In this document: positions 50,758 through 55,956 of the stretch, one piece after another | Layout: every line of letters starts with the position of its first letter | How positions within the stretch are numbered: position 1 is the first letter of the stretch | Origin: an uncultured Gemmatimonadaceae bacterium | Lineage (GTDB): Bacteria; Gemmatimonadota; Gemmatimonadetes; Gemmatimonadales; Gemmatimonadaceae | NCBI GenBank assembly: GCA_963790305.1 | Contig: CAWBOC010000001.1 | Location: 32,001 to 96,000, forward strand | Length of the DNA: 64,000 nucleotides | Direction: 5' to 3' | Notes under the pieces: generated by a model | What the model was told of the DNA's origin: nothing | Seen by the model: the letters and a program-made list of their open reading frames with translations, nothing else | Databases searched by the model: none | Translations under genes and position numbers: made by a program

Positions 50758-51607
50758 GCTCCTAGGCGCCCACGTCTCCTCCGCCGGCGGCACGCCTAAC
50801 GCGCCCGGCCGCGCCAAGGCCATCGGGGCGACCGCCATGCAGATGTTCTCGAAGATGGCCAACCGGTGGGCAGAGCGACTCTGTGAAGACGATGAGTGTC
50901 GTGCGTTTACGGCGGCGCTCACCGCCACGGACGTCCGCGCGACGGCGGCGCACGACAGCTACCTCATCAATCTCGCCTCACCTGATCCGGTGCTGCGCGC
51001 GCGGTCGCTCGCGTCATTCGAGTCGGAGCTGCGCCGCTGCGAAGCGCTCGGCCTGGGATACCTCGTATCGCATCCCGGGAATTTCATGGATGATCGCGCG
51101 AGCGGAATCGCGCGGAACGCCGAGGCGATCGGCATCGCGCTCGAGCGAGTCCCGGGGCGGGTCGTCATCCTCATGGAAATGACGGCCGGCAGCGGTACCG
51201 CCATCGGGTCGAGTTTCGAAGAGATGGCATCGCTGATCGACGCTGTGCCGGCACCGCATCGCGATCGCGTCGCGGTTTGCGTGGATACCGCACACGTCTT
51301 CGCTGCCGGCTACGACCTGGTCAACGACTATGAGGGCGTCTGGTCGCGCTTCGCGGACACTCTCGGGATGCATCGGCTGAAGCTCATGCATCTGAACGAC
51401 TCCAAGACACCGCTCGGCTCGAGGCGAGACCGCCACGAGCTCATCGCCGAAGGCGCTCTCGGAGAGCGAGCATTCCGCAGCATCATGACCGATGAGCGAC
51501 TGGTCCACATCCCCAAGGTCATCGAGACGCCCAAGCTCGATGATGCGGAGACGACCGACCGGCGTATGCTCGAGCGGCTTCGGAGTTATGTCGCCTCCAG
51601 CCCGTAG
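50756..51607 (+). CDS. nfo: Endonuclease IV
   Basis: 'GAHVS.AGG', 'HDSYLINLAS', 'HPG', 'CVDTAH', 'HLNDSK', 'DRH', 'ETP'; the conserved N-terminus starts at CTG 50756 (first ATG is 50837). Confidence 0.9.
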   Translation: MLLGAHVSSAGGTPNAPGRAKAIGATAMQMFSKMANRWAERLCEDDECRAFTAALTATDVRATAAHDSYLINLASPDPVLRARSLASFESELRRCEALGLGYLVSHPGNFMDDRASGIARNAEAIGIALERVPGRVVILMEMTAGSGTAIGSSFEEMASLIDAVPAPHRDRVAVCVDTAHVFAAGYDLVNDYEGVWSRFADTLGMHRLKLMHLNDSKTPLGSRRDRHELIAEGALGERAFRSIMTDERLVHIPKVIETPKLDDAETTDRRMLERLRSYVASSP

Positions 51608-51642
51608 CGGCAGGCCTCGCGACGATGTTATTGTCGGTTAGC

Positions 51643-51990
51643 ATGCGAACCCCGCGCTCGCCCCGACTCATCGGCCTCACCGGCACTGTGCGCGCCGCTG
51701 CCGCCCTGGTGACGATGCTGCAGCTGCTCCTCGTCGCCGCCGCGCCGCTCGCGGAGCGACAGGACAGCACAGTTGCCGCAATCCACGTCGAGCAGGCAGG
51801 GACGAGCACGCATCACGCGCACGGCGAGCTGTGCGCAGTATGTGCCGCGTCGCACCTCGTCGCGCCGCCAGCGCGCGCCGCTACGGCACCCGTCGTGGCC
51901 AGCGTGACCACCAGCGCCAGCGACGTCTCTCGCCCTCCCTCGACCGCAGCAGAGAGGCTCGACACCCAGCCGCGCGCACCGCCGGCCTGA
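51643..51990 (+). CDS. DUF2946/CruR-like secreted leader protein with a His cluster, CxxC and C-terminal RAPP arrest motif
   Basis: Hydrophobic signal (AAAALVTMLQLLLVAAAPLA), 'HVE....THHAHGELCAVCAASH', Pro/Ala linker, ends QPRAPPA*; alternative ATG at 51625. Confidence 0.8.
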   Translation: MRTPRSPRLIGLTGTVRAAAALVTMLQLLLVAAAPLAERQDSTVAAIHVEQAGTSTHHAHGELCAVCAASHLVAPPARAATAPVVASVTTSASDVSRPPSTAAERLDTQPRAPPA

Positions 51991-52091
51991 CGCATCGCGC
52001 CTTCCTGGCGCGCTCCTCGTACCATCCGCAGAACCACCGATCGCGCACGGCCCTTCGCGCCGGCGCGGCACTGCACAGGAGCACGATGCGT
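51990..52091 (+). promoter_or_regulatory. Intergenic RNA stem able to sequester the SD and start codon of the downstream gene
   Basis: 51990-52007 acgcatcg-c-gc-ct-tcctg pairs with 52076-52091 cagga-gc-a-cgatgcgt, which contains AGGAG and the ATG at 52086. Confidence 0.7.
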
Positions 52092-53447
52092 ACAATTTTT
52101 TTCAGTGGGCTGCTGATCGCGCACATCAGTGCGACAGCCGGCGCACAGCAACCCGATACGACGGCTCGGCGCGACTCGATCGCGCGCGCGGACAGCATTG
52201 CGCGGGCGGACTCGATCCGCCTGGTGCGCGAGCTCGAGCGCATCCGCGGCGAGGCGCGCCCGCCGCATGTCATGGGCGGCATGGCGCCCGCGCAGCCGCA
52301 GCAGCCCAACAACCCCGGACTCAACCCGAGCATCAGCGTCATGGGCGACATCGTCGTCGACGCGAGCCCCGATGGCAGCACACTCGAATCGGCTCGGCGA
52401 TTCGACATGCGCGAGGTCGAGCTGGCGCTGGGCGCCAACGTCGACCCGTTCTTCCGCGGCGATTTCATTCTGGGGCTCAGCGACGAGGAAGGCATCGCGA
52501 TCGAGGAGGGATACCTCACCACGACGTCGCTGCCATGGCAGCTCCAGGTGCGGGCTGGCCGGTTCCACCTTCCCTTCGGCAAGCAGAATACGACGCACCG
52601 CGCCGAGCTTCACACCATCGAATACCCGTACGTCATCCAGCGCCTGCTCGGCGATCACGGGGGAAAGGGGACCGGCGTCGCGTTGAGCAAGATCTTCTCA
52701 CCGTTTGGCTTCTATCAGGAGATTCAGCTCACGGCGATCGAACGATTCCCGGAGGAGCATCACGAGGAGGACGGCGGTCATCTCGCCGAGCATGGGTTCG
52801 AGGGAACTCCCGCCGAGCCGCCTAACCATTCGCTCGAGGGGCTGGGCTACACCGCTCGCTTCCGGAACTACTGGGACATTGGCGAGGCCACGAACTTCGA
52901 GGTGTCGTTTAGCGCCGGCACGGGCCGCATTGATGAGCCGTTCGGATGCGAGTCAGTGCTGACACCGGGACATTTCGATCCCTGTCCCGGCCCGCGCGGA
53001 GAGACCGCAGTGCTCGCGCGACAATCGCTCCTCGCCGGCGATCTCACCTTTCGGTGGCGACCGCTGCAGCACGGCTTGTATCGCTCGTTCATTCTCCAGG
53101 CGGAGGTGATGCGCCAGCATAACGACGAGCCAGCGCTTCCGGCCGGGCTCCCGGCCGGCGCTTCATATCTCGGTCCGACAGAGGAGACCACGGGCCTGTA
53201 CGTCTTCAGCCGGTGGCAGCTGTCACGGCGCCTGTTCGTTGGGGCCCGGTATGACCGGGTCGAGGCAGCGGCAGACGCGGAGCGAGACTTATCAGCGATT
53301 TCGGGGTACTTACAGTTCTTCCCCAGCGAGTTCTCGAAGATGGTGCTGGGGTATGAAAACCTACGGCCCGACGTCGGCGATCGCGTGAACCGTCTGCTCC
53401 TGCAGATGACGATCGCCATTGGACCGCACCGGCCACACCCGTTTTGA
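52086..53447 (+). CDS. Outer-membrane beta-barrel/porin-like metal uptake protein
   Basis: Signal peptide, 'NPSISV.GD', 'REVELALGANVDPFF', His/Glu loop EEHHEEDGGHLAEH, amphipathic strands, C-terminal GPHRPHPF; no plug/TonB box evident. Confidence 0.75.
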   Translation: MRTIFFSGLLIAHISATAGAQQPDTTARRDSIARADSIARADSIRLVRELERIRGEARPPHVMGGMAPAQPQQPNNPGLNPSISVMGDIVVDASPDGSTLESARRFDMREVELALGANVDPFFRGDFILGLSDEEGIAIEEGYLTTTSLPWQLQVRAGRFHLPFGKQNTTHRAELHTIEYPYVIQRLLGDHGGKGTGVALSKIFSPFGFYQEIQLTAIERFPEEHHEEDGGHLAEHGFEGTPAEPPNHSLEGLGYTARFRNYWDIGEATNFEVSFSAGTGRIDEPFGCESVLTPGHFDPCPGPRGETAVLARQSLLAGDLTFRWRPLQHGLYRSFILQAEVMRQHNDEPALPAGLPAGASYLGPTEETTGLYVFSRWQLSRRLFVGARYDRVEAAADAERDLSAISGYLQFFPSEFSKMVLGYENLRPDVGDRVNRLLLQMTIAIGPHRPHPF

Positions 53448-53459
53448 GCGGATGGACAT

Positions 53460-54362
53460 ATGAAACGCCTCGTCATCATTGGCGCGGCTGTGGCGACGCT
53501 TGGCTCTCCACTGTCCGCGCAGAAGCTTCGAATCGTCACCAGCACCACCGACCTGCACGACATCGCCCATGTCGTGGGCGGCAATCGCGTCGACGCCATG
53601 CACATTGCCGCGGGCTATCAGGACCCGCACTTCGTCGAGGCGAAGCCGAGCTTCGCCCTTCAGCTCGCGAAGGCCGACGTCTTCGCGTACGTGGGGTTGG
53701 ACCTCGAAATCGGCTGGATGCCGTCGCTCCTTGACGCGGCTCGCAACCGCCGGATCAACCGGGGTGGCAGCGGCGACGTGGACGTGTCGCGCGCGATCCC
53801 CGTGCTCGACGTGCAGGCGAACGCCGACCGCTCCATGGGCGATGTGCATCCGCGCGGGAACCCGCACTACTGGCTGCATCCCGAGAACGGCAAGCGCATC
53901 GCGCGCCTTTTCCGCGACAAGTTTTCCGAGCTCGATGCACAAGGCGTGTCGTCGTATCGCGGGAACACCGCGCGCTTCGAGGCCCGCATCGACTCGACCG
54001 TTCGCGCGCTCGCCCCGCAGCTCGCGGCGATTCGCAATCAACCGGTCGTGGCGTACCACACCAGCTGGCGCTACTTCCAGGACTTCACCGGCATGAACAT
54101 CGTCGGGTTCATTGAGCCCAAACCGGGCGTTCCGCCGTCCGCCTCTCACCTCGCCGGGCTCATTCAGCACATGAAGCGCACGAAGGCGAAGGTGATCATC
54201 ATGGAGCCGTTCTACGACCGGAAGATGCCGGACTTCGTCGCGCGCAACACGGGGGCCACGGTGCTCGTGTTGCCCCCGTCGGTAGCAGCGGTGAAGGGCG
54301 TCGACAACTACCTGGAGCTCATCGCCTACGACGTTCGACGCCTCGCCGAGGCGCTGCGTTGA
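53460..54362 (+). CDS. Metal ABC transporter substrate-binding protein (ZnuA/TroA cluster)
   Basis: 'DPHFVEAKP', 'GNPHYWL', 'YHTSW.YF', 'EPKPGVPPS'. Confidence 0.92.
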   Translation: MKRLVIIGAAVATLGSPLSAQKLRIVTSTTDLHDIAHVVGGNRVDAMHIAAGYQDPHFVEAKPSFALQLAKADVFAYVGLDLEIGWMPSLLDAARNRRINRGGSGDVDVSRAIPVLDVQANADRSMGDVHPRGNPHYWLHPENGKRIARLFRDKFSELDAQGVSSYRGNTARFEARIDSTVRALAPQLAAIRNQPVVAYHTSWRYFQDFTGMNIVGFIEPKPGVPPSASHLAGLIQHMKRTKAKVIIMEPFYDRKMPDFVARNTGATVLVLPPSVAAVKGVDNYLELIAYDVRRLAEALR

Positions 54363-55135
54363 GCGCGTTGGTGACGTTCGATCACGCGACGCTCGCATAT
54401 GGGCGTCGCGTGGTGCTTTCGGACCTCACCTTTCAGATTCCCGAAGGAGACTTTCTCGGCCTCGTGGGGCCTAACGGCGCCGGCAAGACGACAATCCTCC
54501 GCGCCATCCTCGGCACGCTCGATCCGACCAGCGGAACCGTAACCCGCCGCCCGGAGCTCAGGTTCGGCTACGTCCCGCAACGGGATCAGGTCGACTACAA
54601 CTTCCCGCTGCGAGTGCTCGACGTCGTCCTGATGGGCCGCTACGACCGCGTCGGCATCGGTCGCCGGCCCAGGCGCGACGATCGTGATCGCGCCCTCGCC
54701 GCACTCGATGCCGTGGGCATTCGGGAGCTGGCGATGGAGCCGTTGACCCGGCTCTCCGGTGGACAGAAGCAGCGCACGCTCATCGCGCGGGCGCTCGTGG
54801 GCGAGCCGAACCTGCTGGTGCTCGATGAGCCGACGACGGGGATGGATCTCGTCTCGACGACGCAGATTCTCGGACTGGTGCGTGAGCTGCACGAGCGGAG
54901 CGGGCTCACGGTGCTGATGGTGAGTCATGCGCTCAACGAGATCGCGAACTACGTCAGGCGAATCGCTCTGGTGCAGGAAGGAAGCTTCCGCATCGGCGCC
55001 GTCGACGAGATCGTGAACGAGCGCACGTTGAGTGAGGTCTATGGCATCCCGGTGGAAGTCGATTCCTTCGCGGGACATCGCATCGTCCTCGCCCGACGTG
55101 GCTCGGCGGTGGTGAAGCCGGGGGAGCGGCGGTGA
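54359..55135 (+). CDS. Metal ABC transporter ATP-binding protein (ZnuC-like)
   Basis: 'GPNGAGKT', 'GYVPQ', 'LSGGQKQR', 'LDEPT', 'VSH'. Confidence 0.92.
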   Translation: MSALVTFDHATLAYGRRVVLSDLTFQIPEGDFLGLVGPNGAGKTTILRAILGTLDPTSGTVTRRPELRFGYVPQRDQVDYNFPLRVLDVVLMGRYDRVGIGRRPRRDDRDRALAALDAVGIRELAMEPLTRLSGGQKQRTLIARALVGEPNLLVLDEPTTGMDLVSTTQILGLVRELHERSGLTVLMVSHALNEIANYVRRIALVQEGSFRIGAVDEIVNERTLSEVYGIPVEVDSFAGHRIVLARRGSAVVKPGERR

Positions 55136-55956
55136 TCGACGCGATTCTCCTCTTTCGCGATGCGCTGTACGGCGCGCTCGTCATCGCGCTCGTCTGCTCG
55201 GCACTCGGTGTCTACGTGGTTCTCCGACGGATCGTCTTCGTGGGCGCGTCGCTGGCGCAGATGTCGACGCTCGGCATCGCGATATCGTTCTGGTTGGCCG
55301 GCATTGGCGTCGCGGGGGTGATCACCAGCAAGCCCGTCATTCTCTCGCTCCTCGCGACGCTCCTCGGCGTCGTGTTCTTTGCGACGGGGATGCGGCGGGC
55401 ACGCATTCCGGCTGACGCCCGCATCGGTGTGGCGTACGTGGTGGCCGGCGCGCTGGCGATTCTCTTCATCGCCAAGGCCGCCGTCGGCGAAGCGCACGAC
55501 ATCTTCCTGCAGGGCAACATCCTCGGCATCACGCGTGGCGATTGGCTCGTCCTCCTTGGCGTGAGCGTCCCGGTGCTTCTCGTGCACGTGCTGTTCTACA
55601 AGGAATTTCTGTTCATCTCCTTCGACCAGGAAACCGCGCGCACGCTCGGGTATCGTGTCGAGCGTTGGACGCTCCTGCTGTATCTGACGATAGGCTTGTC
55701 GATCGCGTTCGCGATGCAGTTCGCGGGGTTGATGCTCGTCTTCGACTTCCTCGTGTTGCCCGCGGTGACCGGTCTGCTGCTGGCCCGTGGAATGGGCGGC
55801 GTGTTCGCGTGGGCGATTGGGGCGGGACTCGCGGCGGCGGTGATTGGCTTTTCGCTCTCCGTTCCGTTCGACCTTCCTACTGGTCCAGCCATCGTCGCGG
55901 TGTCCGGAGTGCTCGTGATCCTCGCATGGCTCATACGCCGACTTCGAGAGCGGTAG
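55132..55956 (+). CDS. Metal ABC transporter permease (ZnuB/ABC-3)
   Basis: 'LGVYVVLRRIVFVG', 'GNIL', 'SFDQETA', 'DLPTGPAIV'. Confidence 0.92.
   Translation: MIDAILLFRDALYGALVIALVCSALGVYVVLRRIVFVGASLAQMSTLGIAISFWLAGIGVAGVITSKPVILSLLATLLGVVFFATGMRRARIPADARIGVAYVVAGALAILFIAKAAVGEAHDIFLQGNILGITRGDWLVLLGVSVPVLLVHVLFYKEFLFISFDQETARTLGYRVERWTLLLYLTIGLSIAFAMQFAGLMLVFDFLVLPAVTGLLLARGMGGVFAWAIGAGLAAAVIGFSLSVPFDLPTGPAIVAVSGVLVILAWLIRRLRER

Follow-up and report, generated by a model that had tools for sequence, protein, structure and literature searches.

CruR of Bordetella pertussis and CutF of Rhodobacter capsulatus are small leader proteins built on the same plan, with a signal peptide, a Cys motif, a spacer and a C-terminal stall motif, and each is the product of the first gene of a metal operon (PMC9426467, PMC9973294). 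Ribosome arrest at RAPP has been experimentally established for CruR (PMC9426467, PMC12992588) and arrest has also been described for CutF (PMC9973294), where stalling opens a stem-loop that shields the Shine-Dalgarno (SD) sequence of cutO (PMC9973294; bioRxiv 10.1101/2025.02.05.636593). Here we analyse a 64,000-nt stretch of DNA (the window) in which a short open reading frame (ORF) with a similar build ends in RAPP upstream of a gene for a 453-aa exported protein and a ZnuABC-like transporter. The intergenic RNA is predicted to fold so that both the SD and the AUG of the 453-aa gene are masked, and to be opened by a ribosome at the end of the leader. We consider it fairly likely that this RNA acts as the output device for an arrest-peptide leader that senses metal.

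The closest described systems are CutF-cutO, for its stem-loop output, and CruR-bfrG, for its uptake operon, leader motifs and spacing. CutF resembles the window leader in being a small exported protein with a Cys metal motif and a Pro-rich C-terminal stall sequence; in both systems an anti-SD in an intergenic stem-loop shields the SD of the next gene, and stalling has been proposed to melt the stem. However, CutF has a CxxxC and a PPP-type motif, whereas the window leader has H..H..CxxC and RAPP, and CutF turns on a copper-detoxifying oxidase in the presence of copper, whereas the window cargo is an uptake-type outer-membrane protein together with ZnuABC-like proteins. The window structure also differs in that it is a predicted three-helix junction in which the AUG is masked as well, and its organism is a Gemmatimonadaceae-like soil bacterium.

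CruR (Bp2923), the leader of bfrG in Bordetella pertussis, shares with the window leader the signal peptide, the CXXC motif and a RAPP located a few residues before the stop codon (PMC9426467). The spacer is fixed, with 45 residues in CruR and 43 in the window leader, and each leader is the first gene of a metal-uptake operon and is followed by a long G+C-rich intergenic region. The RAPP of CruR is required for downstream expression (PMC9426467). In CruR the output is Rho-dependent termination in a 162-bp intergenic region, and a stem masking the ribosome-binding site (RBS) is not among the features reported in the passages of PMC9426467 consulted, whereas the 95-nt intergenic region of the window is strongly structured and predicted to mask the RBS. 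Unlike bfrG, the first cargo gene of the window does not encode a TonB-dependent transporter, and the window leader falls below the Pfam cut-off.

SecM-secA and MifM-yidC2, which a first reading of the window sequence (the original prediction) had named as models, and ApdA/ApdP likewise combine a C-terminal RAGP or RAPP arrest motif with an exported or membrane-inserted leader (PMC7897499, PMC10951233), and in all of them the arrested ribosome unmasks a downstream SD. However, these leaders sense Sec/YidC activity and control Sec/YidC genes, whereas the window cargo serves metal transport, and their 5' arm lies within the leader coding region, whereas the 5' arm of the window begins at the stop codon; CutF-cutO and CruR are the closer analogues.

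Predicted fold of the intergenic RNA

All coordinates are positions in the window and all features are on its + strand. The element was originally described as a 15-bp complementarity with one mismatch and a 2-nt bulge, starting at the stop codon of the RAPP leader and covering both AGGAG and the start codon. The two stretches, ACGCATCGCGCCTTCCTG (51990-52007) and CAGGAGCACGATGCGT (52076-52091), can be read directly from the sequence, and their antiparallel pairing indeed gives 8 + 2 + 5 = 15 pairs with one C/A mismatch and a 2-nt bulge. The leader's TGA (51988-51990) shares its last base, A51990, with the stem, where it is the first to pair; the gap from the leader stop to ATG 52086 is 95 nt, and AGGAG occupies 52077-52081. 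Two further elements of the original description, a second anti-SD (GCTCCT, 52012-52017) and a hairpin (GCGCC-ttcct-GGCGC, 51997-52011), are also present.

What had to be revised is the arrangement of these segments. The dominant fold predicted with ViennaRNA is a junction of three helices, in which P1 (51990-51996 with 52085-52091) masks the AUG, P3 (52012-52017 with 52077-52082) masks the SD, and the hairpin formerly regarded as a competitor of the stem is P2, a part of the dominant fold itself. The pair probabilities of P1, P2 and P3 were 0.91-1.0 in contexts of 151, 186, 501 and 758 nt. The single continuous 15-bp helix is a minor conformer with a pair probability of ~0.003, and when enforced it gave -66.3 kcal/mol, which is 4.6 kcal/mol worse than the minimum free energy (MFE) of -70.9 kcal/mol. 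The SD and AUG are masked in both arrangements, and in the free RNA the predicted probability of being unpaired, P(unpaired), was 0.00-0.02 for AGGAGC and AUG, which bears out the earlier statement that the structure covers both.

The segment 51988-52095 folds at -48.2 kcal/mol, compared with -37.7 +/- 3.3 kcal/mol in 200 dinucleotide shuffles (z -3.17), and only 1/200 shuffles folded as well. For the 151-nt segment 51960-52110, z was -1.99 and 4/200 shuffles were as good. An exact 8-mer complement of 52084-52091 appeared in 43/20000 mononucleotide shuffles of 51966-52083.

A run of seven U residues (52096-52102) lies 4 nt 3' of the P1 3' arm, within codons 4-6 of the downstream gene. A terminator reading of this run was dropped because the run is not conserved in orthologues; the terminator scan was also empty, with neither an intrinsic terminator nor a sigma-70 promoter found in 51300-52300. 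An Rfam search of 51400-52400 at E <= 1 returned nothing relevant, and a single hit to Ms_AS-8, with 18.9 bits against a cut-off of 48 bits, was located elsewhere and was discarded.

Predicted effect of a ribosome at the leader end

In ribosomes arrested at RAPP the P and A sites are at the two Pro codons of the motif (PMC10951233; for CruR, PMC12992588). The stall expected for the window leader would thus have the first Pro codon, CCG 51979-51981, in the P site and the second, CCG 51982-51984, in the A site, with A51990 at +12. Toeprints are found at +16/17, the ribosome footprint ends near +15 and the helicase site is near +11; because A51990 is at +12, the stem would start at the very edge of the occupied RNA. 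The original prediction that a stalled ribosome covers the 5' arm is therefore correct only in part: a footprint reaching +14 to +16 takes in just the first 3-5 nt of the P1 5' arm (+12 to +18), while the rest of this arm and the SD-masking anti-SD lie outside.

To quantify the effect on the RBS, we computed the cost of opening the 20-nt window 52072-52091 with the RNA held single-stranded to a given position. With no RNA held, opening cost 14.0 kcal/mol and P(unpaired) of the AGGA core was ~0. When the RNA was held through 51992 or 51994, the cost fell to 8.1 kcal/mol and P(unpaired) of the core rose to 0.85-0.95; the corresponding values were 8.3 kcal/mol and ~0.7 through 51996, and 8.6 kcal/mol and ~0.5 through 51998. 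The predicted gain was 2.4, 2.9, 4.9 and 5.9 kcal/mol for 9, 11, 13 and 15 nt held. In the stalled-state folds P2 grew to 6 bp (CGCGCC/GGCGCG) and stripped G52012 from P3. Forcing the leader end single-stranded, a check that had been suggested with the original prediction, thus opened the SD core when the RNA was held through 51992-51994. The proposal that a stalled ribosome frees the RBS is partly supported in silico, by the AGGA core and the opening cost here and by the coupling seen across the family (below). In its essentials the original reading, a probable RBS mask coupled to an arrest-peptide leader, is retained, although the footprint coverage and the roles of the individual helices had been given imprecisely.

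A ribosome at the stop codon, covering the RNA to 52000-52003, left the AGGA core as open as a stalled one did (P(unpaired) 0.86-0.97). In the model, termination at UGA thus exposes the SD no less than arrest does, and the switch would be a kinetic one.

The leader stop is UGA followed by C in all 15 genus-level leaders (51988-51991 in the window). UGA-C is a weak termination context in E. coli, and slow termination at this site would prolong the time for which the stem is held open.

Conservation of the fold within the genus

Orthologues of the 453-aa gene are present in 8/8 genomes of the genus and in four other genera (36/61 relatives at E <= 0.001). In the MFE folds of the eight same-genus orthologues the outer stem and the hairpin were kept in 8/8 and the anti-SD helix in 7/8. 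The outer stem is thus found in the folding ensemble of the window (P1-P3, 0.91-1.0) and in the MFE folds of all eight of these orthologues. Seven relatives came from metagenomes; four of them fold like the window, and one (L126) pairs its RBS region differently. In the near-identical loci L128 and L129, an internal copy of GAUGCGU pairs with the 5' arm in the MFE fold.

One sub-lineage of the genus (L007, L009, L128 and L129) has, ~30 nt after the 5' arm, an internal sequence nearly identical to the start-region arm; in L007 it reads GAUGAGU. One possible interpretation is that the internal copy is a decoy, or that it may provide a third state of the switch.

The 30 non-coding nucleotides after the stop codon have a mean column identity of 0.92, equal to that of codon positions 1+2 in the last 8 codons of the leader (0.92). 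Identity is lower at third positions, both in the leader (0.75) and in the downstream gene (0.61), and in the middle of the intergenic region (0.75). The P1 5' arm is invariant in 14/15 genus-level sequences, and the single change, from A to G, retains a G-U pair. P2 is paired in 100% of cells in the 15 sequences while its loop varies. Paired cells amounted to 88.5% for the whole fold in 8 sequences and to 95.4% for P1-P3 in 15.

Covariation among orthologues, another check suggested at the outset, brought no support, as no compensatory change was seen in 8 or in 15 genus-level sequences. Only single changes that preserve wobble pairing occurred, and shuffle controls equalled the real alignment in 361/500 cases with 8 sequences and in 500/500 with 15. 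Because the arms are invariant, covariation is uninformative here and not negative.

Coupling of the ribosome-binding site to the leader end across the family

To see how far the coupling extends, we computed ddG, the opening cost of the free RNA minus that of the stalled state, where the stalled state was modelled by removing all RNA to 15 nt past the first base of the P-site codon. For each locus, 20 dinucleotide shuffles of the upstream part served as control. The test covered 72 of 85 unique loci: two were without downstream sequence, and 11 were dropped for a doubtful start or, in one case, as unpublished (L017, L027, L048, L049, L051, L060, L061, L079, L082, L085, L093).

The mean ddG was 3.8 kcal/mol, compared with 0.37 kcal/mol in the shuffles, and it exceeded the locus's own shuffle mean in 59/72 loci. 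In 39/72 loci at most 1/20 shuffles reached the real value, where ~7 such loci are expected by chance; the window itself had a ddG of 5.9 kcal/mol, matched by 0/20 shuffles. Grouped at 50% identity, the leaders form 41 clusters, 30 of which had a positive excess and 20 a median of <= 1 in 20. The effect was seen with each class of downstream gene, with real and shuffled ddG of 4.5 and 0.4 kcal/mol for the barrel class (39 loci), 2.9 and 0.3 for the OEP class (23 loci) and 3.0 and 0.5 for the TonB-dependent transporter (TBDT) class (10 loci).

The RBS bases paired with the leader end averaged 37% and made up >= 30% in 46/72 loci. In many other lineages the anti-SD lies within the Pro-Pro, tail and stop codons themselves, and the gain is present already with 9 nt held. 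The first Pro codon of the motif is CCU in 22/72 loci, compared with 160/2464 among other Pro codons.

The leader protein and its family

The N-terminus of the leader has a basic start, a hydrophobic stretch and a conserved A-P-L-A-E site and, judged by eye, resembles a signal peptide. In alignment A1, residues H48, V49, E50, G53, H60, C64 and C67 are invariant. In the broader alignment A3 (84 sequences) one His and one Cys are invariant, and the second His, the Glu and the second Cys are >= 90% conserved. From this pattern of residues we infer that the His/Cys motif binds metal.

The upstream leader ORF is conserved as protein in 11/12 orthologous loci (the exception is L008), where it ends in RAPP plus 1-3 residues. 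Among the leaders the ~40 residues before RAPP diverge freely while the RAPP end stays. The leader profile matched in 71/401 sampled genomes of the phylum. In an hmmsearch over 100 loci, 92/92 ORF hits had R[A/G/S]PP 1-14 residues before the stop, and the 85 unique loci comprise 79 with RAPP, 5 with RGPP and 1 with RSPP; one of the 85, from the unpublished genome G015, was omitted from all later analyses. Among the 83 loci with a CxxC, the distance from it to the Arg of this motif ranges from 42 to 46 residues and is mostly 44; in the window leader it is 43.

The window leader matches DUF2946 (PF11162) with 16.8-17 bits (E 0.011-0.012) over profile positions 4-117 of 117, where the Pfam gathering score is 23.7 bits. 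In a six-frame DUF2946 search of its own genome the leader reached 14.1 bits (E 0.24), and two other places scored at least as well. Its relatives are matched more readily, with 12/12 in A1 and 61/84 in A3 at E <= 1 and a best E of 2.6e-6, and because of these matches the leader family is tied to DUF2946 through its members. The hallmarks of DUF2946 leaders are present in the window as well, namely CXXC, a RAPP near the stop (RAPPA-stop), a spacer of 43, a signal peptide (by eye) and a place at the head of a metal-homeostasis operon. Judged by these matches and motifs, the window ORF is a divergent DUF2946-like leader, of the family of CruR and CutF. There were also weak matches to DUF6153 (PF19650) in 21/84 leaders of A3 (best E 0.0016), which may be another small-protein family of similar build.

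With the leader profile no second copy turned up in the genome from which the window comes; the next matches had E 0.37. A single-leader search of genome contigs gave 599 pattern matches and no relative, and metagenome contigs added only 7 further loci. In public records the close relatives (93 hits) are annotated as 'hypothetical protein' of Gemmatimonadaceae metagenome-assembled genomes, without a Pfam domain. In the account of Roy et al., DUF2946 occurs in Proteobacteria and in a few Planctomycetes, Firmicutes and Deinococcus (PMC9426467). The word 'Gemmatimonad' is absent from the text of PMC9973294 and PMC12992588, whose supplementary tables could list such members.

Proposed mechanism and alternative explanations

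The fold, its conservation and its coupling to the leader end across the family are in silico observations, and the RNA switch is probably functional. For the protein side, by analogy with CruR and CutF, we infer that ribosomes arrest at RAPP and that the window leader senses metal. The leader (51643-51990) would be exported through its signal peptide. Because the His/Cys motif lies 43 residues before RAPP, it would have just left the exit tunnel when the ribosome arrests at RAP-P. With no ribosome at the leader end, the three-way junction would form, P1 masking the AUG and P3 the SD, and the outer-membrane gene, and probably also the ZnuABC-like genes, would remain untranslated. A ribosome parked at RAPP, or briefly terminating at UGA, would keep the first bases of P1 single-stranded; P1 would then collapse, P2 would gain one pair by taking G52012, P3 would lose, and the SD would stay exposed for the duration of the arrest. 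How long this is would depend on whether the metal site of the nascent chain is occupied. The logic expected for an uptake operon, as in CruR, is that bound metal would relieve the arrest and turn the operon off.

Several points weigh against this mechanism. The stem begins at +12, at the edge of the footprint, and the gain is just 2.4 or 2.9 kcal/mol with 9 or 11 nt held. P3, which masks the SD, is wholly outside the footprint and opens only indirectly in the model, through the extension of P2, and exposure of the AGGA core falls to ~0.7 or ~0.5 with coverage to 51996 or 51998. Opening the 20-nt window in the stalled state still needs ~8 kcal/mol. According to the same calculations a terminating ribosome opens the stem too, which leaves dwell time as the only basis of the switch. 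In the G006-like lineage (L128, L129) the internal GAUGCGU copy captures the 5' arm. Compensatory covariation is absent, with 0 pairs changed on both sides in the 15 genus-level sequences, and the SD, the AUG and an Arg codon in any case limit changes in the P1 3' arm. At the family level, 13/72 loci were not above their shuffle mean ddG and 11/41 clusters were without excess, and the opening cost of the free RNA was only modestly above that of the shuffles (11.0 vs 9.4 kcal/mol; 21/72 loci with <= 1/20). Moreover, Pro-Pro codons by their nature complement purine runs of the SD kind, the family signal may be inflated because SD strength was among the criteria for picking downstream starts, and the loci are related, so the counts and the Fisher p-value overstate independence. 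The window leader itself is below the Pfam cut-off of DUF2946 (17 vs 23.7 bits).

The output might instead be Rho-dependent attenuation, with the C-rich leader end and intergenic region acting as a rut site; we regard this as rather unlikely. A RAPP-arrested ribosome would block Rho loading, and release of the arrest would lead to termination before the outer-membrane gene, with the stem being secondary or merely keeping the downstream gene untranslated so that Rho can act. CruR governs its uptake gene by Rho (PMC9426467), and the window operon is also of the uptake type. The composition is suitable, as C/G over 51965-52042 is 2.0, at the 99th percentile of 78-nt windows on the strand, C and G make up 44% and 28% of the intergenic region, and C exceeds G in 58/72 intergenic regions of the family; no intrinsic terminator was found in 51300-52300. 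However, Rho loading requires unstructured RNA, whereas nearly all of the C-rich stretch is paired in the predicted fold. Part of the C-richness is due to Pro/Ala codons and anti-SD sequences, and pairing of the RBS with the leader end above the level of shuffles is not needed for a pure Rho mechanism. Rho output and the RBS mask can coexist.

A simpler scheme dispenses with regulated arrest: each ribosome terminating at UGA would open the stem by plain translational coupling, and RAPP would be retained for other purposes, for instance in connection with what becomes of the exported peptide. It would fit the start of the stem at the stop codon, and not inside the arrest footprint, and the finding that the SD becomes as accessible with the RNA covered to 52000-52003 by a ribosome at the stop as it does with a stalled one (AGGA core 0.86-0.97). 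We nevertheless think it improbable because RAPP/RGPP and the CxxC spacing are strictly conserved, R[AGS]PP being present in 92/92 hits though the preceding 40 residues diverge, and the spacing being fixed at 42-46. RAPP and RGPP, the variants that occur here, are described as the two strongest arrest variants (PMC12992588). It is also conceivable that the structure arose by chance in a G+C-rich RNA and that its conservation reflects close kinship only. The lack of covariation, the strong folding of shuffled G+C-rich sequence (mean -37.7 kcal/mol) and a z of just -1.99 in the 151-nt context would fit this view. Yet only 1/200 shuffles fold as well as 51988-52095, the exact 8-mer arises in 43/20000, the non-coding region of the 5' arm is more conserved than synonymous sites, and analogous masking with unrelated sequences recurs in 20-30 of 41 leader clusters; because of the shuffles, the conserved non-coding arm and this recurrence, chance seems very improbable.

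Locus layout and downstream operons

The features of the locus are collected in Table 1. The leader is preceded by an endonuclease-IV-like gene, and the 453-aa gene, the ZnuA-like gene, the ATPase gene and the ABC-3 permease gene are presumed to form one operon.

Table 1. Features of the leader, the intergenic RNA and the downstream genes (window coordinates)
Feature	Position	Strand	Evidence or remark
Leader ORF	51643..51990	+	115 aa from conserved ATG 51643; ORF list, protein conservation, profile matches
Alternative in-frame leader start	ATG 51625	+	would yield 121 aa
Putative metal-binding motif H-V-E-x2-G-x6-H-x3-C-x2-C (HVEQAGTSTHHAHGELCAVC)	51784..51843	+	alignment conservation
RAPP arrest motif, CGC GCA CCG CCG	51973..51984	+	R[AGS]PP conservation
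Codon between RAPP and leader stop, GCC (Ala)		+	sequence; leader end ...QPRAPPA-TGA
Leader stop codon TGA	51988..51990	+	last base A51990 is first base of P1
P1 5' arm ACGCAUC	51990..51996	+	+12 to +18 from first base of P-site codon
P2 hairpin GCGCC-uuccu-GGCGC	51997..52011	+	pair probability 0.94-1.0
P3 5' arm, anti-SD GCUCCU	52012..52017	+	pairs with 52077-52082, probability 0.98-1.0
Variable inner intergenic part, C-rich	52018..52076	+	mean column identity 0.75; helices differ among orthologues
Shine-Dalgarno AGGAGC, P3 3' arm	52077..52082	+	P(unpaired) 0.00-0.02 in free RNA
P1 3' arm GAUGCGU	52085..52091	+	spans start codon ATG 52086-52088 and Arg codon
Presumed regulated gene, 453 aa, signal peptide, probably outer-membrane barrel	52086..53447	+	no Pfam/NCBIfam family
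ZnuA-like binding protein	53460..54362	+	Pfam ZnuA 1.3e-49
ABC ATPase	54359..55135	+	Pfam ABC_tran 2.8e-29
ABC-3 permease	55132..55956	+	Pfam ABC-3 7.1e-46

An A/T-rich element, GTTATT(G/C)TCG, is located 8-9 nt 5' of the leader ATG 51643 (51626-51645 in the window) and is kept in 8/8 same-genus loci; this ATG is without a preceding SD. It could serve as the -10 element of a transcript that is almost leaderless, or else be bound by a metal repressor as a half-site; its TGTTAT is similar to one half of the Zur boxes given for Caulobacter in the Zur-regulon table of PMC4176598.

The 453-aa protein had no match to a Pfam or NCBIfam family. In the Atlas the clusters nearest to it bear automatic names (TonB-dependent receptor, zinc-regulated outer-membrane receptor, porin), which are to be taken as a lead only, and the protein is probably an outer-membrane barrel. 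For the ZnuA-like binding protein the best NCBIfam match is AztC (zinc), below the cut-off. Pfam scans of 51 and 29 downstream proteins revealed three operon layouts behind the leaders. In the first, to which the window belongs, a family-less barrel of ~415-455 aa is followed by ZnuA/ABC-3 genes (uptake); in the second, an OEP is followed by a CusB-like membrane-fusion protein (MFP) and an RND pump (efflux); and the third consists of TonB-dependent receptors. A DUF2946 gene also stands ahead of czrCBA in the Zur-regulon table of Caulobacter (PMC4176598).

At one uptake-type locus (L115:2249-2725, - strand) the ABC-3 permease gene is followed by one for a PCuAC copper chaperone (Pfam 1.2e-25), which hints that at least some 'ZnuABC-like' systems handle copper.

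Efflux and uptake operons should need opposite metal responses from one arrest motif. A wider reading, which we put forward only tentatively, is that DUF2946-like leaders of the Gemmatimonadaceae type form a phylum-wide translational metal-stat for zinc or several divalent metals. The ligands may be of a His2-Cys2 type (H-x11-H-x3-C-x2-C), placed ~44 residues before RAPP, and the metal may not be copper. Metal would turn off the ZnuABC/TonB-type uptake operons and turn on the OEP-MFP-RND efflux operons, and for both logics the RBS mask would be written largely in the Pro-Pro, tail and stop codons. Such a design would be one that no database currently recognises.

Significance

So far, metal-sensing arrest peptides have been shown to act as regulators in two copper systems, both from Proteobacteria. 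The window locus and ~80 relatives in one poorly studied soil phylum show the same architecture, in proteins that are annotated as hypothetical. New here are the phylum, which has no earlier report in the literature searched (supplementary tables aside), the different cargo and the fact that these leaders are missed by Pfam. They precede ZnuABC-like importers, RND efflux pumps and TonB-dependent receptors, and they offer a testable output, an RBS masked by the last codons of the leader or by the first bases after its stop. For annotation, small ORFs that end in RAPP upstream of metal-transport genes should be called regulatory leaders. Together the loci provide a natural set of uptake and efflux operons in which one can ask how one arrest motif is relieved by metal in one operon and reinforced in another.

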